A stretch of 64,000 nucleotides of DNA from a plasmid. Where the stretch lies: sequence record NZ_CP049149.1. One strand, written 5' to 3'. How positions within the stretch are numbered: the stretch's first letter is position 1; the number at the start of each line of letters is the position of its first letter. The position numbers were made by a program, and so were the translations under genes. The notes beneath the pieces are model-generated. The model was not told where the DNA came from. It worked only from the letters and a program-made list of their open reading frames with translations, and did not search any database. This document shows positions 1,966 to 41,264 of this stretch, in pieces.

Positions 1966-2317
1966 GTAAGTATGTGAATACTTACTTTTTTGTGGTTTTA
2001 TGTTACAGTTCCCTGACTATCAAGGATGATACAGGGGGGCAATTTTGGCTTTTGGTGGAAGAGTGTGGAGCGAGAAGGGGACGAGCTGGGTCGACCTTGT
2101 CCAGCCAACCTGGGTTCTCGATTTCCGACACGGCATGTCAGGAAGAGGATCGTTGAAGTATGCCATAGACACTTCATTGTTTCATTTAAAAGTCGTGGTG
2201 CTTAATTACACCGTTGAGAGGAAACAGTCACAGCCGTCGTTCTCCATATCGGGCGGCACCGTCTCTTACTCTCTGCCGTCAAGTTGCACTTTCCTCGTTT
2301 GCATGGAGGCAAACTAA

Positions 2318-2965
2318 ATGGCGTATGGCATCAAAATAGTTAACAGCAACGGTAAGATATTCGCGACGCCGGAAACGCCGTTTATGCACATGGCGTACAA
2401 AAAGTCTTTCAGTGTGGGAGACATGGCCTTAGGCAACAAAGCAGTGGCCTACAACACAGGTATTCCTGCTAATGTGCGCATACTCTGCTATGCCAGATGC
2501 AGCACGCAGACGTTGTTTTTTGTCACCCCTTACCAGTCCGGGGGAACATGGTGGTTCAAAATCAACTCCTCCAAAGCCGTATCAGGGACATTTTACTTTT
2601 TTACCAATGAGATCCCCCCATCGTCAGGCGGCTGGGGTCTGGATATGTTTAATGCTTCCGGGCAGCGGGTATATTCAACTTCAACCAAGCCGTTGCAAAA
2701 TTTACAGACGTCGCTGAGCCGCAATGGGGTAAAAACCTTTCAGGCGGGCTTTCCAACAGCTGCCATAGCGACGCCTTGCGAGTATTGGGTGCAGCCCATC
2801 AAAGGCGGGCTTGAGGTGCAGCTTTTCGTCGCTGCGCCATGTGCGACCGGAAACCAGCTCGATCTTACAGCCGTGGGAACGGGGATTATGCCCTCTTCGG
2901 AAGGGTTTAGCTTTACGGCGTTTGGTGGGGTGGTTAACTACATCAACGCCTCTTTGTATGACTGA
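2318..2965 (+). CDS. Hypothetical protein, probably tail fibre associated
   Basis: 215-aa ORF between two tail fibre genes. RBS ggaggcaaactaaATG. Beta-rich composition. Confidence 0.4.
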   Translation: MAYGIKIVNSNGKIFATPETPFMHMAYKKSFSVGDMALGNKAVAYNTGIPANVRILCYARCSTQTLFFVTPYQSGGTWWFKINSSKAVSGTFYFFTNEIPPSSGGWGLDMFNASGQRVYSTSTKPLQNLQTSLSRNGVKTFQAGFPTAAIATPCEYWVQPIKGGLEVQLFVAAPCATGNQLDLTAVGTGIMPSSEGFSFTAFGGVVNYINASLYD

Positions 2966-3036
2966 TGCTGTAGGTAATGGACTGCCTACAAGTTTGTGTG
3001 AGTAAGCGAGCCTGGCTCGTGTAAAAAGGAGAAACT

Positions 3037-5565
3037 ATGTGGTACAGGGAAGGTACTATCACGTTTACGCAGGGAAGTAATATCCTAACCGGCACCGGTA
3101 CGTTCTGGAACGTCACCGCGAATGGCGTACTGCCTGGCATGATTGTTGTCGGCCCAGACAACAAGCTCTATGAAATTAAGCACGTTCTGGACGACACCCA
3201 TTTAACACTGGTAGAGCCGTATTCCGGCGAAACCCAGACAGATGTCCCGTGCCGCATTATCACCACTTATGAAGGCGATCTGACGCAGTTCAGTGCGCGA
3301 TTTGCAGCGCTCATGACCCGCATGTATGCGGATTCAAAATCGATGAGGGGTTGGCTGACCGCTCTTGATGCTGTCACCATTGAGCGAGAAGACGGTACAG
3401 AGGTAACTGTTAAGCCGCTTATGCAGATCGTCAATGAGCACAATGCCAACCTTGAGTGGTACAAGGAAAACAAGGAAATCCTTGACGCCTCGGCTGCCGG
3501 TGCCAAGAAATCAGCGGAAAGCGCAGCAGCAAGTGCGGCAGATGCTGCCGGGAGTTCCAGGCAATCAGCTGCGAGTGCTTCATTGGCTTCAGAGAAAGCG
3601 AATGCGGCTGACGCTAGTGCAGCCGCAGCTAAGTCGTCGGAAACGGTTGTCTCTGAGAAAGCTGACGCGGCAGAAGGTGCAAAACTGGCTGCGCAGACAG
3701 CTGAATCTAATGCTGGTAAGCAAGCAAACGCTGCCGCGGGAAGTGCCACGCAAGCCCAGCAATATGCCACCAATGCAAAGAGAGAAGCAGATCGGGCACA
3801 GACAATCTCGAATGAGATTAACTCAACAGTTGACAAATTCCTTCAGAAAGATCAGAACCTGGCCGACATCACCAACCCCGGCGCCGCTCGTGTAAGTCTC
3901 GGTGTTGAGCGTGTCACGCAAGGCCCGACATCGACCGCGCTTGGAAAATCTGGAGGCTCTCGCCTGTTTGTGTTCGATAACGGTACATGGGGTGCTCTGA
4001 ACGGTTCTGACGCCTATATTCCGCTTGGCGTGGCGCAGGGAGGAACTGGTGCTAATAATACAGCTGGAGCAAGGTCCAATCTCGGCGTAGACAGACTTGA
4101 AAATGCATCAGAAACCAGGACTGTACTTAGAACAACATCTGATGGGTCTTACTTGCAACTTGAAGCCGCTGGGCGTTGGGGGGTGTACAAGCCGGACTCA
4201 GGCTGGATTCCGCTGGCAATAGGTAACGGCGGTACAGGTGCCACAGATGTCAACGGTGCTCGCACCAACCTGATGGTTGACCGTATTGAGCAAGCGCCTC
4301 TTGAAACCCGCCTAAAAAACCAGGATGGGACGAAGTACCTGGTAACGACCAACAGCGGAGAATGGGGGGCGTACAACCGTGGCACTAACCCCGGCTGGAT
4401 TCCTCTCGGCATTGCGCAGGGTGGCACAGGCGCTAAGGATGTGGAGGAAGCCCGAGCAAATCTCGGTCTCGGTTCTACCAACAGTGTTGAATTTAATATG
4501 ATTAAAGGTCGTAGCGACATTGCCACAAGCAAGGTGTCGGATGACGCGGTTCGAAGTAATGCAATCTACACCAATATTGTCGGAAGTGATGGTACTGTTA
4601 AATCGCAGGCCGAACTGTGGTGCGACAGTGTCAACGGGGTTGTGTCACTCGTTAACCGAAATCCGAGCGGGCCGCGATTCTTTACCATTCGGTCTACCGG
4701 TGAGGTTGAGCCGTCTGGTCGCATTATGTCTGGCTATGGTGCTGAGTTTAAGCATAACGGTGAAGTTTTAACACTTCGGCCATCGGGTGATAATCAGGCC
4801 ACTTACATGCTTATACGTGCTAATGACGGTTCCAACGTTATGCTTATTGGAAAGCCTGGCGGAAATGATGACACGGTTCTTTATAACTACAAGCATGGAA
4901 CAAACATCTATATGCAGTCGTCATGGGGCGGCTGCAATAAAAACTGGTACGGGGCTACAGTAGAGTCAAGGAGTGGTTATCTGAACTCAAAAACCTCGGC
5001 ATCAAACGCCAACGCTCACGTCTACTTTATCAATAGCGATGGGCGAAATCGTGGCGTGATTTATGCACAGCCAATTGAGGTAAGTCAGTCGATCGTAATC
5101 AGGTCGGACAATAGCGCTACAGGTGCGGCTGGTCAGTATTTTTTATTCAATGGAGACACCGGAGAGGCAAGAGCGGCCAAGTTTACCGCGACCTCAGATG
5201 AACGTGCAAAATTCTGGATCAAGCCTGTTACCGGAGCGCTGGATAAGATTTGCCAGCTTAAAGGCGTAACTTATTCAATGCACACCACAATCCAGAACAC
5301 GGTGAGAAATGCTGGTTTGATTGCTCAGGATGTACAAAAGGTACTGCCTGAAGCCGTGTCTGTTGGGCAGACTGGAAGCACGCTTGATAAGAATTGCTTT
5401 GAGGTTGAAAACCCATTAACCCTCGACTACAACGCTCTGTCTGCGCTGTACGTGGAGGCATTTAAGGAGGTCAAAACCGAGATGGCGTCCATGAAAACAG
5501 AGATTGAAGCATTGAGGGCTGAAATCGCCGCGCTTAAAGGGGAAACCGGGACGCCTTCTGCTTAA
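3037..5565 (+). CDS. Tail fibre / tailspike protein with C-terminal intramolecular chaperone (peptidase S74-like) domain
   Basis: 842 aa. Ala-rich coiled region, repeated GGTGA..AR.NLG tail-fibre repeats, and a C-terminal TSDERAKFWIKPV...AGLIAQDVQKVLPEAV region matching the S-D-x-R-x-K autoproteolytic chaperone motif of the K1F endosialidase / T5 pb1 family. Confidence 0.65.
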   Translation: MWYREGTITFTQGSNILTGTGTFWNVTANGVLPGMIVVGPDNKLYEIKHVLDDTHLTLVEPYSGETQTDVPCRIITTYEGDLTQFSARFAALMTRMYADSKSMRGWLTALDAVTIEREDGTEVTVKPLMQIVNEHNANLEWYKENKEILDASAAGAKKSAESAAASAADAAGSSRQSAASASLASEKANAADASAAAAKSSETVVSEKADAAEGAKLAAQTAESNAGKQANAAAGSATQAQQYATNAKREADRAQTISNEINSTVDKFLQKDQNLADITNPGAARVSLGVERVTQGPTSTALGKSGGSRLFVFDNGTWGALNGSDAYIPLGVAQGGTGANNTAGARSNLGVDRLENASETRTVLRTTSDGSYLQLEAAGRWGVYKPDSGWIPLAIGNGGTGATDVNGARTNLMVDRIEQAPLETRLKNQDGTKYLVTTNSGEWGAYNRGTNPGWIPLGIAQGGTGAKDVEEARANLGLGSTNSVEFNMIKGRSDIATSKVSDDAVRSNAIYTNIVGSDGTVKSQAELWCDSVNGVVSLVNRNPSGPRFFTIRSTGEVEPSGRIMSGYGAEFKHNGEVLTLRPSGDNQATYMLIRANDGSNVMLIGKPGGNDDTVLYNYKHGTNIYMQSSWGGCNKNWYGATVESRSGYLNSKTSASNANAHVYFINSDGRNRGVIYAQPIEVSQSIVIRSDNSATGAAGQYFLFNGDTGEARAAKFTATSDERAKFWIKPVTGALDKICQLKGVTYSMHTTIQNTVRNAGLIAQDVQKVLPEAVSVGQTGSTLDKNCFEVENPLTLDYNALSALYVEAFKEVKTEMASMKTEIEALRAEIAALKGETGTPSA

Positions 5566-26230: not shown

Positions 26231-26302
26231 GCCTCAATACCTCTTCTTGCCTGTACGAGCAGCTTAGCTCCCTGTTCGTACAGTGATAATTTATAAGCAT
26301 CA

Positions 26303-26318
26303 GAAAACAAATTGTTTT
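26303..26318. promoter_or_regulatory. Palindromic motif GAAAACAAATTGTTTT upstream of the cobT-like gene
   Basis: AAAACAAnTTGTTT family. Confidence 0.35.
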
Positions 26319-26336
26319 AACAAACAAGGGATACTC

Positions 26337-28667
26337 ATGTCTAAACCCCACAAAAGAGCTGTACTGAAGGAGGTACAGGATTTTCGCGACTGTGTTAAAC
26401 GAGTGGTGGCAATGCTCTCTGGCAAAAGAATTCCTGTCGCTGAACGAGGCAATGAAGCGTTTGTTCGCTACAACAAACGTGGGGAGCCAGTACTCGTTAA
26501 CATTCCCTCCATTCCTGACGACGCCACTCCGACGCTCATGAATGCGGTACGCGGCTTCCTTGACCATGAGGTAGCCCATATCCTGTTTACTGATCCCAAA
26601 GTCGCCATGAACATGCGTAACAAGGGCAAAGCCCCATCGACAGGCCTGTGGAACGCGCTGGAGGATGTTTTTATTGAGCGCAAGATGGGGCAGGTGTTTG
26701 GCGGAACACGCCGCAATCTGCTGGCGACGCAGAAGCTGATCATTGAGAAATACTTCCAAACCAACGTGGCCAAAGCAGTAGCCGTCTGCAAAGGCGATCA
26801 GCGTGATTTGTTCCTGAAATTCTTTCTGTGCCCCGTCGTTCGAGCCTGGGATGGCCAAAGCCCTTTTGTTGAGTTTATGGAAGACCATTGGCATTACATC
26901 GCCAAGCCTGTAGCGCTGCTTAAAGAGCATGGTATTGATGTAGCGGTACGCAACATGTCCTGTACTGAGGATTGCGTAAAAGTGGCCGCAGCCATCGCTC
27001 TGCTCATGAAAGACCTGAAAGAAGAGACGGAAGGAAAGCTTCCGGAGAAAAAGTCTTCGGCCAAGAAACCATCTGGCAGCAAGGAAAAAGACGATGAGCC
27101 CGGACGTGAAGATGGCAACCCAGCAAGCCCGGAAAGCGATGACGAAGAGCCAGAAAATGGAGAAGATGAGCTGGGCGCAGCCGACCATAAAAGCGAGCCG
27201 AAGGATGATGAGTCTGGGGAGTTTGATGCGCCAAAATCATTAGATAAGTACTTACCTACTGACGATAAAAATATAAGTGATACAGATATTAATAATACGG
27301 AAGCAGGCTCTGATGGCATAAAAAACTCGCCAGATGAGGATTGTGGCGGTTCAGATGGTGAACATGACCAGAACGAGGAGAGCGCGCCAGCGCCGGGCGA
27401 TGGGATTCGCGAGGATGCAGACGAATCGGACGGATATGGCAGCGGCGAGGGTGATGCGTCAGAAGATGATCGTTCGGCCACAGGTGGTGGAAGCGATGGC
27501 GAGCCAGACAAAGACGGTGAAGAATCGGGTGAAGGAAGCGAGACGGAGGAAGGTGCCGAAGACTCACAGGATGACGACTCCGGGTGTGTGGCTTCTCCGG
27601 ACGATATGACGCTTGACGATGCACTCAAGGCACTGGACGAGGTTGAAGATGAGGTCGGGGAAGTAACAGAAGACGCGCTCTCTTCGACAATCAGCAGCGA
27701 ACTGAAAAGAACCTCTCTTGAGGAATATCGCCCATACGACCGCTCTTACGACTTTATCGGTCCAATCGACGAGGCAGAAGACCACATCAGGCGTACCAAA
27801 AAAGTCTTTGGAGCCATTCCGATGTACTCACCCATTGACCGTTATCGCATGGTTCCGGAAGGTCGCAAGCTGTTTGAGTTGTCCATCGAGCGACACCTGT
27901 CGGCCGGTGTATCTGCAACCCTCGCCAAAGATCTGGAGCGTGCGATTGCCAGCAGAAACCGGGTGCAGTTTATACCGGGTCAGCGTCGTGGCCGCATTCA
28001 TGGCTCCAGTCTTTATCGCCTGGCGATGAACGATGATCGCGTATTCCGTCGCAAGGAAGATCACCGTGCAGTTAACGCGTGCGTCCAGCAGGTTATCGAC
28101 TTATCAGGTTCAATGAGCGGCAAAAAGATTCACCTGGCACTGGCCAGCGCATACACCATCGCCGATGCACTCGACCGCATTAACGTGCCGAACATCATCA
28201 CCGGCTTCACCACGTTCGGAAATCCGGACTACTCGACAATGTCGAAAGCAGGGTTCTCACGTTTTGAAGCGCTGATGCTGCCAATCATCAAGAACTGGAA
28301 TGAGAAAGCGAACTCTCCGGAGATCCGCGCTCGTATGGGTTGTGTGGGCGAGACGTTCCCCCTGCTCAACAACGTTGATGGCGAGAGTATCGCGCAGCTG
28401 GCATCACTGTTTTCGGGGCGCATGGAGGACAAGAAAATCATGATGGTCATGAGCGATGGCGCGCCGTGTGCTGCTGGCGATGGGTTTGCTCCACATTTGA
28501 GATCTGTCACTAACGAGATCGAGACCTTAAGCGACATTGATCTCATGGCCATAGGCATCCTTACTGACGCTCCGAGACGCTATTACAAAAACTACGCCCT
28601 CGTGAACAGCGTTGAGCAAATCGGGCCATCGGTCGTTAAAGAGCTGTCTCGTATCATTCTCGGGTAA
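26337..28667 (+). CDS. CobT-like vWA-domain protein with long acidic linker
   Basis: C-terminal vWA MIDAS motif DLSGSMSG. Very acidic, low-complexity central region (D/E/S/G-rich). RBS aaggga. Confidence 0.6.
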   Translation: MSKPHKRAVLKEVQDFRDCVKRVVAMLSGKRIPVAERGNEAFVRYNKRGEPVLVNIPSIPDDATPTLMNAVRGFLDHEVAHILFTDPKVAMNMRNKGKAPSTGLWNALEDVFIERKMGQVFGGTRRNLLATQKLIIEKYFQTNVAKAVAVCKGDQRDLFLKFFLCPVVRAWDGQSPFVEFMEDHWHYIAKPVALLKEHGIDVAVRNMSCTEDCVKVAAAIALLMKDLKEETEGKLPEKKSSAKKPSGSKEKDDEPGREDGNPASPESDDEEPENGEDELGAADHKSEPKDDESGEFDAPKSLDKYLPTDDKNISDTDINNTEAGSDGIKNSPDEDCGGSDGEHDQNEESAPAPGDGIREDADESDGYGSGEGDASEDDRSATGGGSDGEPDKDGEESGEGSETEEGAEDSQDDDSGCVASPDDMTLDDALKALDEVEDEVGEVTEDALSSTISSELKRTSLEEYRPYDRSYDFIGPIDEAEDHIRRTKKVFGAIPMYSPIDRYRMVPEGRKLFELSIERHLSAGVSATLAKDLERAIASRNRVQFIPGQRRGRIHGSSLYRLAMNDDRVFRRKEDHRAVNACVQQVIDLSGSMSGKKIHLALASAYTIADALDRINVPNIITGFTTFGNPDYSTMSKAGFSRFEALMLPIIKNWNEKANSPEIRARMGCVGETFPLLNNVDGESIAQLASLFSGRMEDKKIMMVMSDGAPCAAGDGFAPHLRSVTNEIETLSDIDLMAIGILTDAPRRYYKNYALVNSVEQIGPSVVKELSRIILG

Positions 28668-28761
28668 AAATTTACCCGATAAAATAAGTAATCACTTACT
28701 ATACACCCTAATATATTTATATAAGATATACGCCACTAACGACAACGAGTAAGGAAAGCAC

Positions 28762-29997
28762 ATGGCCGCTAATGCACTGAATCAAGAACAGCAACTGCCT
28801 GAAACCATCGTCTGCAAATGGTGTGGCAAATCCTTTCACCACCTCAAATCTCACATTTCTATGGGGCGCTGCGAAAACCTTCCGGAAGCAGCGAAAGGCC
28901 TGGATGTCGATGAGGTGGTGAAGATGTACACCACGGAGTTTCCGGACGAACCGACCATTTCCAGCACCGCGCTGGCCAAACTCAAAGAGAAGCGTGCCGA
29001 ACTGCATACCGGAGATAGCAAAGTCGCGGAGATCAGCGCGCACCCAGGCTATGTGGGTTCTGTTGAGTACAAGACGGAGCTGGTAGCCGCGCACGAGCTG
29101 CTTGGCGTAACGCTGAAAGAGCTGGGAACGCCACGAGGCAGACCCCTGCAGGTAACGGTGAACGTCAATACGCCATACCCGGAGTTCATACCGGAAGTGA
29201 AGAAGAACTATGTGTATGGCGATTTCGATCTGATTAAAGACGTCTTCATGATGCTGGAGATTGGCATCCCTGGCTATCTCTGGGGTCACGCTGGCACCGG
29301 CAAATCCTCACTGCCAACGCAGCTCTGTGCTCTGCTCAATCGCCCGCTTATCCGCGCACAGCACACCGCTTCGATGGAGGAAAGCCATGTAACGGGTCAG
29401 ATCCTCGCGCGCGACGGCTCCACCTACTTTGAGCCTGGGCTGCTGGCGCTGGCCATGAAAAACGGTTGGGTTTACCTGGCTGACGAATACGACTTCGCTT
29501 TCCCGCAGATTCTTGGCGTGTACCAGCCGGTACTGGAAGGAGAGCCGCTCATCGTTAAAGAGGCGACTCCGGACTGGCGCCGCATTACGCCACATAAGCG
29601 CTTCGCCTTCATCGGAACAGGTAACACCAACGGATCTGGCGACGAAACCGGTCTCTATCAAGGCACGAACATCCAGAACGCCGCGAACTTCTCACGCTTT
29701 GGCATCGTGTCCAACGTGAAATACATGAGTCCGGAGGCAGAAACAAACATGTTGGTTCAGGCGGGCATCATTCGCGAGTACGCCGAGAAAATAGTGAAGT
29801 TCGCCAATCTCGTTCGCGAAGGGTACGAACAGCACCTCATCAGTCAGCCTATCGGTCCTCGTGAACTGCTGCTGGCTTCAAAAATCGGAATGATGCGCGG
29901 CGACTTTGCTGCTGGCATCGAGAAGGCGTTCATCAACAAGCTGCCATCCACGTCTGCCCAGGCTTCACGTGAGGTGGTTCAGAAGATCTTCGGTTAA
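28762..29997 (+). CDS. CobS/MoxR-like AAA+ ATPase
   Basis: Walker A GHAGTGKSSL and Walker B VYLADEYD. Paired with the vWA protein, as in CobS/CobT-like phage gene pairs. Confidence 0.65.
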   Translation: MAANALNQEQQLPETIVCKWCGKSFHHLKSHISMGRCENLPEAAKGLDVDEVVKMYTTEFPDEPTISSTALAKLKEKRAELHTGDSKVAEISAHPGYVGSVEYKTELVAAHELLGVTLKELGTPRGRPLQVTVNVNTPYPEFIPEVKKNYVYGDFDLIKDVFMMLEIGIPGYLWGHAGTGKSSLPTQLCALLNRPLIRAQHTASMEESHVTGQILARDGSTYFEPGLLALAMKNGWVYLADEYDFAFPQILGVYQPVLEGEPLIVKEATPDWRRITPHKRFAFIGTGNTNGSGDETGLYQGTNIQNAANFSRFGIVSNVKYMSPEAETNMLVQAGIIREYAEKIVKFANLVREGYEQHLISQPIGPRELLLASKIGMMRGDFAAGIEKAFINKLPSTSAQASREVVQKIFG

Positions 29998-30177: not shown

Positions 30178-32541
30178 ATGAAGGCTCTGATGGTCAGAAC
30201 TGACTTCTCGCTGGGGGAGTCAGCGCTAAAAGCAGAAAAGGCGGTCAAAATTGCAAAGGAAGCTGGCTATACCGCTGTCATTTCCGCTGACAGCATGAAT
30301 ATTGCCAGTGTCATCCCCCTCCAGCGCGCCGCGGGTGACGATATGGCGGTGATCTGTGGTGTTAAGCTGAATATTGTCGACGACCCCACATACGAGCACC
30401 GCGCCCGAATGGCGAAAGAGTCTGATAGATGTATGGAATCATTGGTGCGTGACCGTAGTTACAGCTTCACTGCACTCATCAAAAATGAGCAAGGTTATCG
30501 CGATGTTTGCGAGCTGATGACCTTAGCGAACAAGCGCGAGCAATTTTACTTCGTACCACGTCTGGCTCTCGACCAGCTGGCTACCGTTTATGCCAAAGGC
30601 AACATCATCCTGCTGACGTCCGACATGGGCAGCGTATTCCAGCGCCGCGACTTCGCGAAGATCATTAGCACGTTGGTTTCTGCGGGTGGGCGCGACAACT
30701 TCTACAGCGTGGTTTATCCGCACCCTACGCCATTCTACGACCAGATTAACGTCCGGGCGATGAAAGTGGCGAGCGCATTGAAAATCGAGCCAGTGGCGTT
30801 CTATCCCGCTTATTACGAAGCTGTCGAGGATGCAGACATTAAAGACATTGCGCACATGGTGACGAACAACATCAAGATCGACCAGCCGCATCGTCTCCGT
30901 ATTCCCCACCAGCGTGACAACGCCATCAATGGGCGCCGGCATCTGCTTGAGGCGCTCAAAGCATTCTCCGTTCGGATGGGTGTACCAGTGACGGCGGCTA
31001 TGGTATCGACGACACAGGACGCGATCATCGAAGCCTGCACCTGGCGCTGGCACGAACTGCCACCGGCATTACCAAAGATGGCCGAAGACGAACCTGCTGC
31101 ACTGATGAAACTTGCGGTTGCTGGCCTGCGCAAGCGTCTCACCACCAAAGAGTTTGGCTATACGCCACCAGCGTCTGAGCACCGTGTATATGTTGATCGT
31201 CTCAAGTATGAAATGGATACGCTGACCCGCCTGGGCTTCTGCGGTTACTTTCTGATGGTGCGCGATTTGATGAATCACAGTCGCGAAACCGGTATTCCAG
31301 TTGGCCCCGGTCGTGGTTCATCTGCTGGCTCTCTGGTGGCCTGGTGTATCGGCATCACCAACGTTGACCCAATCCGCCACGGTCTTCTGTTTGAGCGTTT
31401 CATTAACCCTGAGCGTCTCGACCTTCCGGATGCAGATCTGGACTTTAGCCAGGCACGTCGCCATGAGGTGATCGAGTATCTGAATGAGCGCTATGGCGAG
31501 GACTATGTTGCCGGTATTCCTAACTTCACTTATCTGGGCGCGGCTTCCGCGCTGCGCGATACCGCTCGTATTTATGGCGTCGACGCCGCGGATATGGCGG
31601 TGTCCAAAGAGTTCAAGAATCTGGAAGACGATAGCCTGTCACTGGAAGAACTGCGCGAGCAGCTGGCCAGCCTGGACAAATACGCTAACAAAAACCCGGA
31701 AGCGTTTAAGGCGGCGTGCAAGCTGCAAAGTCTGATGCGTGGCTTCGGCCGCCACGCTGCGGGCATGATTGTCGCTGGCGTACCACTGGTTGAGCGCACG
31801 CCCGTAGAGCTGCGGGGTAATGCGCGCTGCATTGCGTTCGATAAGCGTTACTGCGAGGCAATGGGGCTGATTAAGCTGGACGTACTCGGTCTGGCCACGC
31901 TCGATCTGCTGGATAGCGCAAAGCGTTACATCAAAGAGAGCACTGGCAACGATATCAACCTCGACGCCATTCCACTCGACGACCGCAAAGTTCTGGATGG
32001 TTTCGCAGCTGGCTACACACAGGGCGTCTTCCAGCTGGAATCTGGCCCAATGCGCAAGCTGCTTAAAGATCTGGGTAGCGGTATCGAGCCAATGAGCTTT
32101 AAAACGGTTGTCGCGACCACCGCGCTCTTCCGCCCCGGCCCCATCCAGTCAGGCATGTTGGATGACTACGTTTCTGTGGCCAAAGGCTTCATGCCACCAC
32201 ATTCCTTGCACCCAATGCTAGACGATATATCTCGCGATACAAACGGCGTACTGATTTATCAGGAGCAAATCATGGCTGCTACGCGAATCCTGGCGGGGTT
32301 CTCAATGGCGGAAGCAGACTCGGTCAGGAAAGCGATCGGGAAAAAAGATATGGAAAAAATGAAATCCATTGGTGGCGACTTCATTAAGCGAGCGGAGAAA
32401 GGCTGGGTGACAGTGTCACTTGATGATGGTTCTACGCGGAAAATTCATAAAACGGCACGTTTGCTTTGCGCTGATGGTGAGCGTCGTACTTACGCCGAAG
32501 CAATGGCTGTAAATGCCGACATAACGAGCTTCGATATTTGA
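30178..32541 (+). CDS. dnaE: DNA polymerase III alpha (DnaE-type) N-terminal fragment: PHP and polymerase core
   Basis: PHP domain followed by GSSAGSLVAWCIGIT and catalytic aspartates in RLDLPDADLDF. The fragment ends at ...FIKRAEKG plus a 45-aa unrelated tail, about 25 aa before the conserved FNKSHS motif. Confidence 0.8.
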   Translation: MKALMVRTDFSLGESALKAEKAVKIAKEAGYTAVISADSMNIASVIPLQRAAGDDMAVICGVKLNIVDDPTYEHRARMAKESDRCMESLVRDRSYSFTALIKNEQGYRDVCELMTLANKREQFYFVPRLALDQLATVYAKGNIILLTSDMGSVFQRRDFAKIISTLVSAGGRDNFYSVVYPHPTPFYDQINVRAMKVASALKIEPVAFYPAYYEAVEDADIKDIAHMVTNNIKIDQPHRLRIPHQRDNAINGRRHLLEALKAFSVRMGVPVTAAMVSTTQDAIIEACTWRWHELPPALPKMAEDEPAALMKLAVAGLRKRLTTKEFGYTPPASEHRVYVDRLKYEMDTLTRLGFCGYFLMVRDLMNHSRETGIPVGPGRGSSAGSLVAWCIGITNVDPIRHGLLFERFINPERLDLPDADLDFSQARRHEVIEYLNERYGEDYVAGIPNFTYLGAASALRDTARIYGVDAADMAVSKEFKNLEDDSLSLEELREQLASLDKYANKNPEAFKAACKLQSLMRGFGRHAAGMIVAGVPLVERTPVELRGNARCIAFDKRYCEAMGLIKLDVLGLATLDLLDSAKRYIKESTGNDINLDAIPLDDRKVLDGFAAGYTQGVFQLESGPMRKLLKDLGSGIEPMSFKTVVATTALFRPGPIQSGMLDDYVSVAKGFMPPHSLHPMLDDISRDTNGVLIYQEQIMAATRILAGFSMAEADSVRKAIGKKDMEKMKSIGGDFIKRAEKGWVTVSLDDGSTRKIHKTARLLCADGERRTYAEAMAVNADITSFDI

Positions 32542-32560
32542 TATTTAATTTATAAGATAA

Positions 32561-32575
32561 GAAAACAATTTGTTT
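32561..32575. promoter_or_regulatory. Palindromic motif GAAAACAATTTGTTT upstream of the HNH endonuclease gene
   Basis: AAAACAAnTTGTTT family, lying inside the dnaE split. Confidence 0.35.
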
Positions 32576-32589
32576 AGTGAGTTTAAGTA

Positions 32590-33324
32590 ATGCCGGGTAC
32601 GAAGTACAAAATCACAGAAGAATGGTTACGTCAGCGTTACATGGTTGACCTGATGAGAAAAGAAGACATTGCAGCCGAAGCTGGTTGCAGCAAGGCAAAT
32701 ATTGACCGCCTATTGGCCAAGTGGGGGATTAGACGCGGGAGCGCTCGGATATCCGCTACCCCAGCTTGGAACCAAGGCAAAAATAAAAACAACGACGAAC
32801 GCATGAAGCGACTCTCCGAAGCCCGGACTGGCGCTGGCAACCCTATGTATGGGAAGACCGCGTGGAATACTGGTCTGCGTGCTGATACCGATGAGCGAGT
32901 GTCCGCCGTATCGAAAAAACTGCTCGGCAAAACAATCAGTGCGGATACGAAGGAAAAGCTTGCGGCTGCCAAACGCGGAAAGTTGGGTGATGAAGCGAAC
33001 AACTATAAAGGTGGCGTCATCTTAAAAACTAACGGCTATCTGATGCGGCTGGTTGGTAACAACGGCGTTTCGCAATACGAATACGTTCATCGGTTGATAG
33101 CGAAAGAACGGCTCGGCCGAGCGCTACGTGACAATGAACATGTACACCACATTAACCGCAATACGGTAGACAACGCTCCTGGGAATCTGGTGGCACTTCC
33201 AGAAGACGCCCACATTCGCCTGCATCATGACATGCGTGATGAGGTATGGAGCTGGGAGCGTCAGCGAGAATGGCTCATCGCCAATGGGTATGAGTTCGTG
33301 AAGATTGATGAGGTGACTGCATGA
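32590..33324 (+). CDS. Free-standing HNH homing endonuclease inserted within dnaE
   Basis: HNH motif HHINRNTVDNAPGNLVALPEDAHIRLHH. In the same frame as dnaE-N but separated from it by two stop codons. Has its own RBS (agtttaagtaATG). Confidence 0.75.
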   Translation: MPGTKYKITEEWLRQRYMVDLMRKEDIAAEAGCSKANIDRLLAKWGIRRGSARISATPAWNQGKNKNNDERMKRLSEARTGAGNPMYGKTAWNTGLRADTDERVSAVSKKLLGKTISADTKEKLAAAKRGKLGDEANNYKGGVILKTNGYLMRLVGNNGVSQYEYVHRLIAKERLGRALRDNEHVHHINRNTVDNAPGNLVALPEDAHIRLHHDMRDEVWSWERQREWLIANGYEFVKIDEVTA

Positions 33325-34490
33325 AAATTACCGGTGTTGTTGAAGAGAGTAATGGCCTGACGCATGAACGAGCCGAAGAAATCTGGAATATGTTTGAAAA
33401 ATCCGGCGCGTATGCCTTTAACAAATCGCACTCTGTTGCTTATTCTTTAATCAGCTATCAGTCCATGTGGCTAAAAACGCACTACCCGGCTGAGTTTTTT
33501 GCTGCTGCGCTCACCATTCTGGGCGAGGACAAACATCAGGGGCTTGTGAAGGATGCGCTGACCTATGGCATTCGCGTACTGCCACCAGATGTGAACATAT
33601 CGTCTAATCGCATTGAGATCCGCACGCTGGAAGATGGCAGCCAGGTTCTTTACGCGCCCTTCTCTGCCATCAAAGGATGCTCTGAGAATGGTTGCCAGGC
33701 CATCATGCGAGCACGAGAAAAGGTCGGTGGCGCATTCGAGTCACTGGCGCAGTTTGAAGAAGCGGTAGAGAAGCGTGCCTGCAATAGCCGAGTACGTGAA
33801 TCGCTGGACAAAGTTGGGGCGTTTGCATCCATTGATCCGGGCAGCTTGCCAGCCACCGCTCCGGAACGTCTGCGCGACCAGGCGGAGCTGATGGGCAATC
33901 TGGTAATCGACGCAGTGAAAGCCTCACGTCCGTTTGAAATGAACCCCAAGCGCTCTGCTGAGGTCAATTTGCTTATGACGCGCATGGCGGCCGAAATGGG
34001 CTTAGGAGATGAGCTGATCCGCCCAAGCATCGGCATTAAACCGAAAATCATGGTCATTCTGGATAACGCGAACGGCAATGATGGGCGTACCGGTTACTTC
34101 ATGGAGAACGGCTATGACGACTTCAAGGCCAAACTGCTTACTGCAGGCGACTTACGCATGGGCGATCTGTATGTCACCGGCGTATGTAAAAAGGTGAAGG
34201 ACAAAGAGAAAGACTACACCAAAGATGAAATCGGCCAGTTCACCGACTTCATGCGTGAAGAGATAAACCTGGTACGTCCGACTTATGTGCTGACGTGTGG
34301 CAGCCGGGCGACATCACTCTTCAATAACAAGAGCAAACCGTCAGATCTGGTTGGTCGTAAAGAGTATCTGCCGGAGCTGGATGTCACCGTCTTCTACGGG
34401 TTTAACCCGAACATTTTGTACTTCCGTCCAGAGGAAGGAGAAAAGCTGGAAGCGATTCTGGCAGAGGTAGCGGAGACTATTAACAAATGA
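33321..34490 (+). CDS. dnaE: DNA polymerase III alpha (DnaE-type) C-terminal fragment
   Basis: Begins ...ERAEEIWNMFEKSGAYAFNKSHSVAYSLISYQSMWLKTHYPAEFFAA, matching E. coli DnaE around the FNKSHS motif. ATGA overlap with the HNH stop codon. Different frame from the N-fragment. Confidence 0.7.
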   Translation: MKITGVVEESNGLTHERAEEIWNMFEKSGAYAFNKSHSVAYSLISYQSMWLKTHYPAEFFAAALTILGEDKHQGLVKDALTYGIRVLPPDVNISSNRIEIRTLEDGSQVLYAPFSAIKGCSENGCQAIMRAREKVGGAFESLAQFEEAVEKRACNSRVRESLDKVGAFASIDPGSLPATAPERLRDQAELMGNLVIDAVKASRPFEMNPKRSAEVNLLMTRMAAEMGLGDELIRPSIGIKPKIMVILDNANGNDGRTGYFMENGYDDFKAKLLTAGDLRMGDLYVTGVCKKVKDKEKDYTKDEIGQFTDFMREEINLVRPTYVLTCGSRATSLFNNKSKPSDLVGRKEYLPELDVTVFYGFNPNILYFRPEEGEKLEAILAEVAETINK

Positions 34491-36634: not shown

Positions 36635-37645
36635 ATGTCTAAGTCATTACTTGATCTGCTTAACAAGACTCGTGGCGATATTGCTTCCAAACGTGGCAAT
36701 AACGTTGACCTGACCCGTCTGAAAGACGGCAACAACTTTCTGCGCATTTTTCCGAACAAGGATGACCCGAACGGGGTGTTCTTCCAGACTTTCGGTATGC
36801 ACTACGTTAAGCATCAGAATGAGGAAGGCAAAGAAGTTACCACTGCTTATGTCTGCGAACAGCACACCCACGGCCGCGCTTGCCAACTGTGTGAGATGGT
36901 GATGGAAGGTCGTGTCCGCCACAAAGGCAACAAGGCGATGGAAGAGCGCATTAACTCCATGCGTGCTACCCCGCGTTATCTGGTGAATGGTGTACTGTCT
37001 GCCCGCGAAGACTTTGGCGATGCAGAGAAATGCCAGCTGATCGAGCTGCCGTCCACCGTCTTCGATGACATCTGCAAAGTCATGTCCGAAGACATTGCAG
37101 ACGACATCGGCAACCCGCTGAGCAAGGAAGAAGGCTACGCGTTCCTGATTAAGCGCACCGGCTCTGGTCGTGATACCAAATATGACGTATCGCCGAAGCG
37201 CAAAGTCTACAAAGGCGACATCGCTGAGAAACTCTGGACTACCCAGCATGATCTGATCGCATACGCGAACCAGGCCGACGAGACCCGTCTGCTCTCTACC
37301 GCGCGCACGATGGGTCGCCTGATTGGCATCGCAGCGCCAGCTGCCACCATGTCTGCACCGGCGATTTCGTCTTCTGCTAAATCCGCTGCCGCCGCCCTGC
37401 CGGGTTTCGGCTCCATCACTGGCCATACGGAAGGCGCCGCTGCTGTCGCTACAGCACACACCCCAGCGCCGGAATCCTCCAGCCTGGTTGATGAAGAAAT
37501 TCTGCGTGCCGCGGAAGCTGAGTTTAAGCCAGAACCCGAAGCGGCTAAGGCACCGGAAGCAGCGATCGAACCGACTGCTTCCGCCACCGCTGCTCCGGCC
37601 GAAGAAGGTCTCGATGACCTGCTGGCTGAACTGGACGCTCTGTAA
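36635..37645 (+). CDS. ssDNA-binding protein, T4 gp32-like
   Basis: TRLKDGNNFLRIFPNKDDPNGVFF aligns with T4 gp32 [26 protein letters not shown]. His/Cys zinc ligands (HTHGRACQLC). Acidic C-terminal tail LDDLLAELDAL. Confidence 0.65.
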   Translation: MSKSLLDLLNKTRGDIASKRGNNVDLTRLKDGNNFLRIFPNKDDPNGVFFQTFGMHYVKHQNEEGKEVTTAYVCEQHTHGRACQLCEMVMEGRVRHKGNKAMEERINSMRATPRYLVNGVLSAREDFGDAEKCQLIELPSTVFDDICKVMSEDIADDIGNPLSKEEGYAFLIKRTGSGRDTKYDVSPKRKVYKGDIAEKLWTTQHDLIAYANQADETRLLSTARTMGRLIGIAAPAATMSAPAISSSAKSAAAALPGFGSITGHTEGAAAVATAHTPAPESSSLVDEEILRAAEAEFKPEPEAAKAPEAAIEPTASATAAPAEEGLDDLLAELDAL

Positions 37646-37663
37646 TCCCATCTCGTAACCAAT

Positions 37664-37690
37664 AAGGCGTCTACGGACGCCTTACTTTTT
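37664..37690 (+). terminator. Rho-independent terminator
   Basis: aaggcgtctacggacgccttacttttt. Confidence 0.5.
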
Positions 37691-37705
37691 GGAAGGAGTG
37701 TACCG

Positions 37706-38650
37706 GTGAATTATCTCTTAGTGGACGGTAACAGCCTGGGCTATTACCACCAACAATCAGACAAGTTGCACAACGGCGAAATGGAAGTTCAGGCAGCGTT
37801 TGGCTTCGTGAAAAACGTTCGTCGTTACGCATCCATCCTACATGCCAGACCGATGATTCTGTGGGATGGCTTTAGCGACAAGCGTCGTGATTTTTATCCG
37901 GAATACAAAGCGAACCGCGATGACGATCCGGATATGAAGAAGATGAAAGAGGGCTTCGCTCTCCAGAAGCCTTACATCATGAAAATGATGACCGCGCTGG
38001 GCGTTAACCAGCTCGTTGCGAAAGACGCAGAAGCGGATGACCTGGCTGGAATGCTGGTCTCGCGCCTGGCTCCGCAGCCCACTGTCGACCACATCTACTT
38101 ACTGACAGGTGATGGCGACTGGCTCCAGCTGGTGCGCGAAAACGTGAGCTGGGTAAGCCTTCGTGAAGACGCCAAGCACAAACAGGTGAACTTCGAACAA
38201 TTCGCAGAGCTAACCGGTCTGCCAACGCCTCGCGCATTTCTGGAAGCGAAAGCGTTACAGGGTGACACATCGGACAACATCAAGGGTGTCGGTGGTATTG
38301 GCGACGGCGGCGCTAAAGAGTTGCTGCATGAATGGGGAAGCGTGGCCGCAATGGTACGCGGTATCAATGACGGCTCCATCGTCATCGACAAAGGCCGCTA
38401 TAAGACCGCATTCAACAAGCTGGCAAAGAACGCGTTTAACGAAAAGACGGGCTGCCGAATGCTGGAGGCGTTCAAACGCAACATGACACTGATGAACCTC
38501 ATCGAAACGAAATTTCCGCCCAGCGAAATCGAGTCCATTAAAGGCGCGCGCGATGTTAAGGCGTTCGAACAGCTTTGCTACGAACTGAACTTCCGCTCGT
38601 TTCTGGAAGACCTGGACGTGTTCATCCTGCCATTTGAAAGGTACTGCTGA
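37706..38650 (+). CDS. 5'-3' exonuclease / flap endonuclease (T4 RNase H / T5 D15-like)
   Basis: LLVDGNSLGYY (PIN-like N-terminus) and GDTSDNIKGVGGIG (helix-hairpin-helix motif). Confidence 0.7.
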   Translation: MNYLLVDGNSLGYYHQQSDKLHNGEMEVQAAFGFVKNVRRYASILHARPMILWDGFSDKRRDFYPEYKANRDDDPDMKKMKEGFALQKPYIMKMMTALGVNQLVAKDAEADDLAGMLVSRLAPQPTVDHIYLLTGDGDWLQLVRENVSWVSLREDAKHKQVNFEQFAELTGLPTPRAFLEAKALQGDTSDNIKGVGGIGDGGAKELLHEWGSVAAMVRGINDGSIVIDKGRYKTAFNKLAKNAFNEKTGCRMLEAFKRNMTLMNLIETKFPPSEIESIKGARDVKAFEQLCYELNFRSFLEDLDVFILPFERYC

Positions 38651-38916
38651 TGCTGAAATCCATTATCAACGGTGGCGCTACCACCCCAACCATGCTGGCT
38701 AAAGAGATCGTGTTTTGCCACGGCGAGCACGCTGTTGTAGCGCTGCGCAGCATTCTGGGTACTGCCGGTATTTCTGCCACTGAACGTGAGTATGCGTTGT
38801 TGAGTGAGCAGGTTGTGAAAATCCTTGCTCGTATCGCAAAGCACCTCAACCACGACGTAATCAATTTTGACGAAGCCGCTGCTTCGAAGCGTATTAACGA
38901 AACTAAAGGAATCTGA
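38650..38916 (+). CDS. Hypothetical protein
   Basis: 88-aa ORF. ATGA coupling to the exonuclease gene. Confidence 0.35.
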   Translation: MLKSIINGGATTPTMLAKEIVFCHGEHAVVALRSILGTAGISATEREYALLSEQVVKILARIAKHLNHDVINFDEAAASKRINETKGI

Positions 38917-38918
38917 TC

Positions 38919-41264
38919 ATGGCAAAAGGAAAATCCGCTCTTGCGCTGGCACTGAAAAAGAAAATTGGCAGCAACGACGAAATTCAGAAGGTCACGCACT
39001 GGATTGACAGTGGCTACCCTCCGCTGAATAAAGCGATCTCCGGACGTTTCGACGGCGGCTTCCCATGTGGGCGCATCGTTGAGGTATTTGGGCCACCAAG
39101 CGCGGGGAAATGTGTTACCGCAGACACCATGCTGCTGACGGAGCGTGGAATGGTAACAGTGAAAGAACTGTTTGAGATTGAGGGGCACAAAGCAACATGC
39201 ACTACTCGCGATGTAGAGCATAACGTTGGACTCATCAATGAAAATGGCGTGATAGAGAAGACCTCACACCTGACATGGAACAACCGTCGCAAATTCAAGC
39301 GCATTAAGCTGGCATCAGGGGGTTACATCGAGGCTACGTTCCGTCACCCAATTCGTGTGGTTGACGACTTAGGCAATATCGTCTGGCGGTATGCTGAAAA
39401 AATCAGTGTAGGCGACACGATTCCTTCAATGGTTGGCACACATCAATTCGGCGATCAGCACTTGGACGCCAATATCGCAAAACTGATGGGCTATTTAATT
39501 GCTGACGGATACGTGGCCTCTGAAAATTCTGTGCATTTTTCTAACACAGATCCATTCATCAAGGATGAGTACTACCGCCTCATTTCGCTGGTATCAGACA
39601 AGATGCCAGTTACGAGAAAACATAACGGCTCGGAAGACCATGTGCTGTTTAGCAAAGAGGTGCGTTCGCTGCTTTTTAAAGAATATGGTCTGGAGTATGA
39701 GAAAGCTGCTGGCAAGCAGGTTCCGTTGAGTGTGCGTCGCGCCAATAGCGAGGCTCAAATTGCATTCCTTCGCGGCTACTTTGAGCTGGAATGCCACGTC
39801 AATGATGGTCGCTGCATTGAGGTTGTGAGCGCGAGTGGGCTGCTGCTACAGCAAATTCGCCTCATGCTCCTGAATCTGGGGATTACGTCAACTATCTCTG
39901 AAAAACACGTCGCAGGTTATAAAAACATATATTACCGGCTGTCATTCAGTGGCTCTAACTACGACCTTTTCCTGTCAACGATTGGGTTCGAGTCTCCGGC
40001 TCGTTTAGCAGTGGCAACCAAACGGGACATTAGTTTTGACCGCACTTATTTAGGCTACGTTCCGCACATCAGCGGCTTAGTGAAATCACTCTACGAGTCA
40101 CTCACCAAGACCTCTCGTAAAGACTACGTTCTGGTAGATCACGTTATTGGCCGCGGCGATCGTGTCGGAATAGACAAACTACGAGAAATCTATGTCTCCT
40201 TCATTGGCAGAAAGAATCGTTTTAACGAGCATCTGTTTGCACAACTGGCAGCGGTAATTGACTCTAACTTGTTCTACGACGAAGTCGTGGCTATTGAGGA
40301 AGGTGAAGCACCAACGTTCGACGTAGCGATGCCGGAAACACACTCTTTCTGGTCTAACGGGATTATCAGCCACAACACATTCCTCGCGACGGCTGCAATG
40401 GTGTCAGCACAGAAACAGGATGGTCTGGCCGTATTCCTCGACCACGAAAACAGTTTTGACGTTGGCCTGGCAGTGGCTAACGGTCTGAACGCAGATGAAG
40501 ATGACGGCCAGTGGGTCTACAAACAGCCTGACACCTTCGAAGATTCGGTTGAGCTTATTGGCACCATCCTCAAGCTGGTGCGCGATGAAGAGTTAATTCC
40601 GGAAGACGCACCAATTTGTATCGTGGCCGACTCGCTGGCGTCTATGGTGCCGAACTCCAAAGCCGAGAAGTTCGACAAGATGGCGGATGGCACCGCGAAG
40701 GACAAAGACCAGCTGAATATGAACGACAATACGGCGCTGGCGCGCGCGACGAGTGCGAACTTCCCTACTCTGGCGCTCTGGGCGAGAAAATATAACGCCT
40801 GCATCATTTTCTTGAATCAGGTGCGTACAAAGATTGGTGTGATGTTTGGCGATCCGACAACGTCTCCGGGCGGCGACTCGCCAAAGTTTTACGCGTCAGT
40901 GCGCATCCGTCTGGGTGCATCTGTCATGAAGGACGGCAAAGACAAGATTGGGCAAGACGTGGGTGCCGAGTGCATCAAAAACAAAGTGGCGACGCCATAC
41001 GGCAAATGCTCATGGAAGTTTTACTTCGACCCGAGCCGCGGTCTCGACGTCATCGAGTCTTTAGTTGAGTACATGCTGGAAGAAGGATACCTGCCAAAGA
41101 ACGCCAGCGGCCGAGTAGAGATTGGCGACAAGAAGTTCACCAAATCGCAGATCGTCGACATGTACCGCGAGAAGCCCCTTTCGGAGATCATCGCAGCGCT
41201 GCAAGCGATTGACGAAAGACGTGCCAAAGAAACGGCACCAGAAATCGAAGAAGAAGTTGAGTAA
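38919..41264 (+). CDS. RecA/UvsX-like recombinase containing an intein in the P-loop
   Basis: The exteins reconstitute the Walker A motif GPPSAGK|TFLATA. Total extein length is about 359 aa. The C-extein carries the RecA-fold core (..IFLNQVRTKIGVMFGDPTTSPGG..). Confidence 0.75.
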   Translation: MAKGKSALALALKKKIGSNDEIQKVTHWIDSGYPPLNKAISGRFDGGFPCGRIVEVFGPPSAGKCVTADTMLLTERGMVTVKELFEIEGHKATCTTRDVEHNVGLINENGVIEKTSHLTWNNRRKFKRIKLASGGYIEATFRHPIRVVDDLGNIVWRYAEKISVGDTIPSMVGTHQFGDQHLDANIAKLMGYLIADGYVASENSVHFSNTDPFIKDEYYRLISLVSDKMPVTRKHNGSEDHVLFSKEVRSLLFKEYGLEYEKAAGKQVPLSVRRANSEAQIAFLRGYFELECHVNDGRCIEVVSASGLLLQQIRLMLLNLGITSTISEKHVAGYKNIYYRLSFSGSNYDLFLSTIGFESPARLAVATKRDISFDRTYLGYVPHISGLVKSLYESLTKTSRKDYVLVDHVIGRGDRVGIDKLREIYVSFIGRKNRFNEHLFAQLAAVIDSNLFYDEVVAIEEGEAPTFDVAMPETHSFWSNGIISHNTFLATAAMVSAQKQDGLAVFLDHENSFDVGLAVANGLNADEDDGQWVYKQPDTFEDSVELIGTILKLVRDEELIPEDAPICIVADSLASMVPNSKAEKFDKMADGTAKDKDQLNMNDNTALARATSANFPTLALWARKYNACIIFLNQVRTKIGVMFGDPTTSPGGDSPKFYASVRIRLGASVMKDGKDKIGQDVGAECIKNKVATPYGKCSWKFYFDPSRGLDVIESLVEYMLEEGYLPKNASGRVEIGDKKFTKSQIVDMYREKPLSEIIAALQAIDERRAKETAPEIEEEVE
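39111..40376 (+). mobile_element. Intein (422 aa) with LAGLIDADG homing-endonuclease domain
   Basis: Starts with Cys immediately after GPPSAGK and ends with ...IISHN followed by Thr. Contains LAGLIDADG motifs LMGYLIADGYV and LRGYFELECHV. Confidence 0.7.

Follow-up and report, generated by a model that had tools for sequence, protein, structure and literature searches.

The stretch of DNA analysed here, a window of 64,000 nucleotides (nt) from the plasmid record NZ_CP049149.1, holds a long open reading frame in which the gene for a RecA-like recombinase is interrupted in frame by a predicted intein. The gene and its parts are arranged as follows.

38919..41264, plus strand: precursor gene for an intein-containing RecA-like recombinase, 781 amino acids (aa), 86.9 kDa (from the list of open reading frames and Pfam).
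38919..39110, plus strand: N-extein, residues 1-64, ending with the first part of the Walker A motif, GPPSAGK (from the translation and alignment with phage SSU5).
39111..40376, plus strand: intein, 422 aa, 47.7 kDa, running from Cys1 to His421-Asn422 and followed by Thr+1 (from the translation, profiles, alignment and a structural model).
40377..41264, plus strand: C-extein, residues 487-781, in which Thr487 completes Walker A and the RecA core and C-terminal domain follow.

The insertion falls between Lys64 and Thr487 of the Walker A motif, or P-loop, GPPSAGK|T; precursor residue 65 is Cys and residues 485-486 are His-Asn. A first-pass annotation of the same DNA had placed a 422-aa intein between the Lys and Thr of Walker A within a 781-aa reading frame, at 39111-40376, and these boundaries proved exact to the base. 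Excision of residues 65-486 in silico yields a 359-aa protein reading ...EVFGPPSAGK|TFLATAAM..., and its GPPSAGKT aligns with the GPESSGKT of E. coli RecA. Indeed, the Pfam RecA model matches the precursor in two separate stretches (8e-36, above the gathering score) and the spliced protein in a single unbroken stretch covering residues 27-281 (E = 6.5e-42), in keeping with the proposal that removal of the insert restores a P-loop and a 359-aa RecA-fold protein. The computed masses of 86.9 kDa for the precursor, 39.2 kDa for the recombinase and 47.7 kDa for the intein likewise agree with the products of about 39 and 47 kDa that had been forecast. The exact 781-aa protein is held by NCBI and UniRef as 'recombinase RecA / LAGLIDADG family homing endonuclease' of Cronobacter sakazakii, and it recurs on at least 22 contigs of about 100-111 kb.

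By sequence comparison the extein is a RecA-like phage recombinase, and much nearer to bacterial RecA than to UvsX. Against the Protein Data Bank (PDB), the spliced extein matches bacterial RecA best (E of about 1e-33) and UvsX far more distantly (5e-8), so that of the initial label 'UvsX/RecA-like' the RecA half holds and the UvsX half does not fit nearly as well. The extein also matches PHROG 97, 'UvsX-like recombinase', at 2.5e-89. Two more specific family assignments were considered and rejected. The extein scores 130.4 bits against the bacterial RecA equivalog TIGR02012, which has a cutoff of 325, and the protein of the window scores 98.4 bits against NF007072, the family of Mycobacterium tuberculosis-type intein-containing RecA, which has a cutoff of 1024 and describes another intein at another site.

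The conserved splicing blocks downstream of the N-terminal cysteine are positioned as follows.

39336..39347, plus strand: splicing block B, T76-F-R-H79 (TxxH), from its motif position and alignment with related RecA P-loop inteins.
40311..40376, plus strand: splicing blocks F and G, PTFDVAMPETHSFWSNGIISHN, from alignment with homologues and TIGR01443.

On these features the insert is predicted to be a full-length class-1 intein. The predicted splicing residues are all present (C1, T76xxH79, D404, H411, H421, N422 and T+1), and the class-1 motifs, namely C1, TxxH, PTFDV...THSF, H421-N422 and Thr+1, are conserved in homologues. In block B of related RecA P-loop inteins the histidine is invariant and the threonine mostly retained. 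The F/G region is the best-conserved stretch among relatives that are only 28-45% identical to this intein, and E396, P401, T402, D404, V405, P408, S412 and F413 are near-invariant across distant homologues. Blocks A, B, F and G, for which the first-pass annotation had proposed a profile search, are all present, and the curated models score above their cutoffs: Intein_splicing PF14890 matches at 1.8e-11 (44.6 bits, gathering score 35.8), TIGR01445 intein_Nterm at 35.9 bits (cutoff 24.5) and TIGR01443 intein_Cterm at 17.8 bits (cutoff 15.6). The Pfam matches to RecA, LAGLIDADG_3 and Intein_splicing lie well outside the reach of chance. A bacterial intein-like (BIL) domain and a free-standing endonuclease gene were rejected as descriptions of the insert, because it continues the reading frame, lacks a start and a stop of its own and closes with His-Asn before a Thr. 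An AlphaFold2 model of the intein, built from 12 sequences, reached a mean pLDDT (predicted local distance difference test) of 86 and a pTM (predicted template-modelling score) of 0.88. It begins with a beta-rich N-terminal Hint half, continues with two alpha-beta-beta repeats and a linker of helices, and closes with the C-terminal half of Hint; as modelled, the structure has the Hint fold. When the model was compared with the PDB by Foldseek, the top matches were full-length endonuclease inteins: TliVMA 7qss (E = 2e-25, template-modelling (TM) score 0.75), PI-PfuI, PI-PkoII, PhoVMA and PI-SceI. Partial matches were to the Mxe GyrA mini-intein on the splicing domain and to I-DmoI on the endonuclease core.

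Nested within the splicing domain is an endonuclease of the LAGLIDADG type, matched by LAGLIDADG_3 (PF14528) in two stretches at 4.4e-18, above the gathering score. Its two motifs are the following.

39483..39509, plus strand: LAGLIDADG motif 1, LMGYLIADG, canonical, intein residues 125-133, aligned to LLGYYVSEG of PI-PkoII.
39765..39794, plus strand: LAGLIDADG motif 2, FLRGYFELEC, degenerate, intein residues 219-228, aligned to FLEGYFIGDG of PI-PkoII.

Both of the motifs claimed at first are therefore present, with the qualification that only motif 1 is canonical and motif 2 is degenerate. The putative catalytic residues Asp132 and Glu227 align with the catalytic acids of PI-PkoII, Glu227 falling on its catalytic Asp, and in the AlphaFold2 model they terminate helices 120-132 and 213-227, respectively, on the C-terminal side, with beta-strands after each LAGLIDADG helix. 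Divergent alleles of the intein (96.8% and 91.9% identity) gave ratios of non-synonymous to synonymous substitution rates (dN/dS) of 0.14 and 0.095 over the whole intein and of 0.12-0.16 in the endonuclease region, and none of the six alleles checked contains a stop codon. The endonuclease is therefore under purifying selection, and the intein is probably still an active homing endonuclease.

The element that carries this gene is an SSU5-family phage-plasmid of Cronobacter sakazakii. SSU5 represents an established type of phage-plasmid (PMC7969092), and the window shares synteny and nucleotide similarity with SSU5 and with non-mobilizable plasmids of about 100-115 kb (pHCM2 and pMT1 type). Its closest relatives are Cronobacter sakazakii plasmids of SSU5 type and about 100-110 kb, which are 98-99% identical across 22 kb. 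Matches to the 4 kb around the recombinase gene comprise phage SSU5, three further phage isolates and 551 plasmids in PLSDB. The plasmids are almost all non-mobilizable, with listed sizes of about 105-125 kb, and their host genera are Escherichia, Enterobacter, Klebsiella, Yersinia, Salmonella, Citrobacter and Cronobacter.

Comparison across this family also supplied the intein-minus alleles that the first-pass annotation had suggested seeking. The orthologue in phage SSU5 (358 aa) has exteins 95% identical to those of the window, despite only about 85% identity in DNA, and the gap in the alignment corresponds exactly to residues 65-486. Similarly, three Cronobacter plasmids carry an uninterrupted 359-aa gene that lacks exactly these residues. 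In PLSDB as a whole, 246 records contain the intein DNA and 532 contain an uninterrupted site, an occupancy of about 30%. The records with intein come from Escherichia (123), Klebsiella (71), Enterobacter (41), Citrobacter (6), Shigella (2), Kluyvera (1) and Salmonella (1), with one more from an uncultured source; no Yersinia or Cronobacter plasmid in that database was seen to carry the intein. The lineages free of it include Yersinia pMT1, at 63 of 63, and the pHCM2 type of Salmonella. Among 5426 complete E. coli genomes, 120 carry the intein, and all 121 copies are on plasmids, none being chromosomal. These frequencies contradict the opinion, voiced in the first-pass annotation, that such an intein is uncommon in phage-plasmid recombinases. 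Cultivable phages are found on both sides, Cyrano, PhiR41_1 and vB_KpnS_p4727 with the intein and SSU5 without it. Partial copies of the intein also exist in PLSDB (H61 and H62). The most divergent allele, at 91.9%, is that of Escherichia albertii NZ_CP034165.1 (L009, locus 2309-5256), in which the intein frame is intact, an IS911-family transposase lies in the C-extein of the recombinase and no coding sequence (CDS) is annotated; this appears to be a decaying copy.

The intein is far more uniform than the elements that carry it. Among the alleles of the window (Cronobacter type), Enterobacter, Klebsiella and E. coli it is 99.8-100% identical, whereas the surrounding 2.2 kb of these four backbones differ by 14-18% (flank identity 82-86%). 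The same pattern holds in PLSDB, where 158 copies, spread over Escherichia, Klebsiella, Enterobacter and Citrobacter, share 99% identity or more with the intein of the window, against flanks that are 80-91% identical. The junctions of the window's own copy bear two short tracts of substitutions.

39095..39110, plus strand: upstream co-conversion tract, 5 substitutions, all synonymous, relative to three intein-less Cronobacter alleles.
40377..40419, plus strand: downstream co-conversion tract, 13 substitutions relative to the intein-less Cronobacter alleles.

In comparison with the intein-less Cronobacter malonaticus NZ_CP141994.1, the far flanks of the window are 99.5% identical and the 64 nt abutting the intein 72%. 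Upstream, the N-extein up to position 39090 equals the three intein-less Cronobacter alleles at 172/172 positions, whereas the last 20 nt before the intein match them at only 15 (differences at 39095-39107) and match the alleles Ent_L3, Eco_L5 and Eco_L8 at all 20. Downstream, the first 44 nt match intein-less Cronobacter at 31 positions (differences at 40379-40419) and Ent_L3 and Eco_L5 at 42; from 40421 to 40720 the window again equals the intein-less Cronobacter alleles, at 297-300 of 300 positions. Over the 64 near-intein positions together, agreement with the E. coli and Enterobacter intein-plus alleles is 62/64. The 18 substitutions, mostly synonymous, all fall in the 16 nt before and the 43 nt after the intein (18/64 near it versus 0/472 beyond; Fisher p = 2e-18), and the two non-synonymous changes, Ile to Val495 and Asn to Asp501, are both in the downstream tract. 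On the 5′ side the crossover maps between 39090 and 39094, on the 3′ side between 40420 and about 40432. The clusters represent a classic co-conversion tract, and the homing event in this lineage was therefore recent.

Other backbones carry comparable traces. For the Enterobacter allele, identity to an intein-less sibling from Citrobacter falls from 99.4% in the far flanks to 87.5% in the near ones; for the Klebsiella allele the same comparison gives a weaker contrast, 98.5% versus 95.3%. These patterns point to recent independent invasions in at least two, and probably three, cases. Within the Cronobacter type, six further loci agree fully with the window throughout the intein and at either junction; that lineage therefore goes back to one invasion followed by vertical spread. 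Exact-match scans for the 71-nt extein/intein junction specific to Cronobacter gave no match in two contig collections, genome_contigs and viral_contigs. In sum, the intein is better conserved than its host gene and the flanking markers have been co-converted, as is characteristic of homing.

The intein itself is not new. In their 2015 survey of RadA and RecA inteins, Topilina, Novikova, Stanger, Banavali & Belfort (Nucleic Acids Research (NAR) 43:6631, PMC4513877) distinguished five insertion points, and their Table 1 lists a 'c2 (65-486)' intein in Enterobacter cloacae BWH 29, Enterobacter sp. MGH 26, eight E. coli strains and Salmonella enterica 557928. Both the residue range and the P-loop position coincide, the host genera overlap, and the Enterobacter, E. 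coli and Klebsiella alleles compared here have 99.8% DNA identity to the intein of the window; the two are therefore the same intein. That table has no Cronobacter lineage, the paper reports no splicing or homing data, and it mentions no plasmid or phage location, whereas here the gene belongs to SSU5-type phage-plasmids and phages. The P-loop had also been singled out in the first-pass annotation as a hotspot for inteins, in agreement with PMC4513877 and PMC4760082. At the homologous GK|T end of Walker A, and likewise in a RecA-family recombinase with a +1 Thr, lies the Pyrococcus horikoshii (Pho) RadA mini-intein, c1 (PMC4513877). It is, however, an endonuclease-free mini-intein of about 170 aa from a hyperthermophilic archaeon, and it is for this mini-intein that conditional splicing was shown experimentally. 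The c2 intein was judged an independent invasion with little sequence similarity to it (PMC4513877). PI-MtuI of Mycobacterium tuberculosis RecA (insertion point a) is also a LAGLIDADG intein in a RecA-family protein, but is inserted at residues 252-691, at the monomer-monomer interface.

Among inteins of solved structure, TliVMA (7qss), PI-PfuI (1dq3), PI-PkoII (2cw7) and yeast PI-SceI (1vde) share the architecture of a Hint domain with a nested LAGLIDADG endonuclease. They match the model with Foldseek E values from 2e-25 to 4e-10 and TM scores up to 0.75, and show sequence similarity in the endonuclease domain; their sequence identity is only 10-20% and their hosts are V-ATPase, ribonucleotide reductase and DNA polymerase. 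Nearer relatives occur in other bacterial and phage RecA proteins (P0004-P0018, 28-45% identity), all at GK|C...HN|T(T) of the P-loop with blocks A, B, F and G conserved. These differ in that their exteins are bona fide RecA with the PF21096 C-terminal domain and in that several of their endonucleases are degenerate or deleted. For example, LAGLIDADG motif 1 or almost the entire endonuclease (leaving mini-inteins of about 230 aa) is missing from P0011, P0015, P0017 and P0018, one of which lies on a 550-kb contig. With their decayed endonucleases, such relatives at this insertion point represent later stages of the homing cycle.

Together these data make it highly probable that the insert is a class-1 intein with a LAGLIDADG homing endonuclease, lodged in the P-loop of the SSU5-family RecA-like recombinase and identical to the published RecA c2 (65-486) intein. 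From the observed anatomy, empty-site alleles and gene-conversion footprints we infer the following steps of splicing and cleavage. Translation would produce an 87-kDa precursor in which Walker A is split between Lys64 and Thr487 and ATP binding is presumably blocked. Splicing is expected because blocks A, B, F and G are intact and the predicted fold matches that of known inteins, and by established intein chemistry it would begin with an N-S acyl shift at Cys65. Thr487 would then attack the thioester to give a branched intermediate, and cyclisation of Asn486 followed by an O-N shift would restore the Lys64-Thr487 peptide bond, setting the 48-kDa intein free and leaving a recombinase of 39 kDa in which GPPSAGKT is intact. 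Within the same cell, the free intein would cut the empty GPPSAGK|T-coding site of an SSU5-type element that lacks the intein, and repair from the intein-plus copy would transfer the intein along with a few tens of flanking bases. LAGLIDADG enzymes tolerate synonymous variation in their target sites, and invasion of a Cronobacter site that differs from the donor flanks at 18 mostly wobble positions fits this tolerance.

Several observations weigh against this scheme. Motif 2 has ELEC where DADG or GDG would be expected, and all Cronobacter-type intein-plus copies examined share a single junction. Ordinary gene conversion without endonuclease cleavage could in principle give short tracts. The +1 nucleophile here is Thr, with which splicing is slower than with Cys or Ser in some inteins, and we found no experiment on splicing or DNA cleavage by this intein in the searchable literature. 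One might accordingly suppose that splicing is intact and the endonuclease dead, its distribution being due to vertical descent together with ordinary homologous recombination among co-resident phage-plasmids. The non-canonical FELEC of motif 2 would suit such a history, as would the identical junction of the six Cronobacter-type loci, which indicates vertical inheritance there, and the loss of the endonuclease in P0011, P0015, P0017 and P0018, since it demonstrates that decay occurs at this site. We nevertheless consider it quite unlikely. Both acidic residues are kept and line up with the catalytic residues of PI-PkoII, the endonuclease region has a dN/dS of 0.12-0.16, and the two junctions are no farther than about 21 and about 56 nt from the intein, in DNA that shares only about 85% identity with the donor. 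Junctions this tight, in at least two and probably three independent backbones, are expected of break-initiated repair and not of random crossovers. The original suggestion that the intein is probably an active homing endonuclease is thus supported by the domain models, the empty sites, the predicted fold, the purifying selection and the homing footprints.

Two further explanations concern the recombinase rather than the endonuclease. It is unlikely, though it deserves mention, that the intein has been co-opted as a post-translational switch, with conditional splicing in response to single-stranded DNA (ssDNA), DNA damage, redox or temperature gating the recombinase by stage of the life cycle. 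The insertion point is shared with the Pho RadA intein, in which the native exteins control splicing (PMC4513877); a P-loop position guarantees an inactive precursor, and the intein is kept in about 30% of alleles. Sequence data, however, say nothing on conditionality, about 70% of related elements have no intein, and selfish spread fully explains the homing footprints. Moreover, the RadA-type arrangement of intein and exteins could not be modelled for an E. coli-type RecA precursor owing to steric clashes (PMC4513877). Were such a switch to exist, an ATP-blind precursor might be stockpiled in plasmid-like lysogeny and spliced upon induction, by analogy with Pyrococcus RadA. A kindred speculation is that the interrupted recombinase might itself mend the homing break. 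That the insertion is instead a non-splicing disruption, leaving the recombinase effectively a pseudogene here, strikes us as very improbable. Some copies are indeed decaying, such as E. albertii L009 with its IS911 element and no annotated CDS, and the partial copies H61 and H62. In the window, however, the 781-codon frame is intact, all splicing residues are present, and the same protein recurs exactly on at least 22 contigs; the 95% protein identity of the exteins to SSU5, against about 85% in DNA, likewise indicates strong purifying selection on the interrupted gene.

The recombinase gene belongs to a T4-like recombination module within the phage-plasmid, formed with the three genes upstream of it.

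36635-37645, upstream of the recombinase: gp32-like ssDNA-binding protein (Pfam gp32, 2.7e-69).
37706-38650, upstream of the recombinase: 5′-3′ flap exonuclease.
Between exonuclease and recombinase (region 36635-38916): small conserved open reading frame, 88 aa, phrog_2207, with no known function.

The recombinase thus sits in a replication-recombination module. A DnaE gene also lies near it, and this gene is itself in pieces.

30178-32541: dnaE-like DNA polymerase III alpha, first piece, 787 aa, with PHP, polymerase and finger domains.
32590-33324: free-standing HNH/NUMOD3 endonuclease gene, 244 aa, between the dnaE pieces.
33321-34490: dnaE-like, second piece, 389 aa, HHH_6.

In pHCM2, DnaE is a single continuous protein of 1171 aa, and the break in the window corresponds to a point around residue 780 of that protein, where the sequences diverge locally. 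The HNH insert is spanned by only 23 of 462 matching plasmids, and an Rfam search of 32000-33800 found no group I intron there even at E <= 1. This insert looks like a second homing element that gives rise to a dnaE 'gene in pieces'. Further upstream, at 26283-29997, the gene for a CobT-like VWA protein (794 aa) precedes one for an AAA_5 (CobS/MoxR-like) ATPase, an unusual pair for the replication region of a phage-plasmid.

The names given to the recombinase in databases are varied. The protein of 779-781 aa is called 'LAGLIDADG family homing endonuclease', 'intein-containing recombinase RecA', 'recombinase RecA' or 'Protein RecA', product names from the Prokaryotic Genome Annotation Pipeline (PGAP) are inconsistent among alleles, with some sharing the NF007072-type name, and the PHROG entry for it, PHROG 9666, carries the label 'unknown function'. 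For this reason, surveys of gene content in SSU5-type elements may overlook the recombinase in intein-plus members, in which the endonuclease label hides it. The intein, its exact boundaries and its P-loop position were already known, having been published in 2015, and the exact protein is annotated in NCBI. The searchable literature yielded no paper linking the intein to SSU5, pHCM2, phage-plasmids or Cronobacter, and none linking a homing endonuclease to SSU5. What is added here is new but modest, namely the homing footprint and the finding that the host gene lies on phage-plasmids and is never the chromosomal recA. It is in SSU5-type phage-plasmids and phages, not in the bacterial recA, that the 'first E. 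coli intein' resides. With hundreds of intein-plus and intein-less alleles, phages of both kinds, and short clean tracts, it constitutes a tractable natural homing system in the Enterobacteriaceae.

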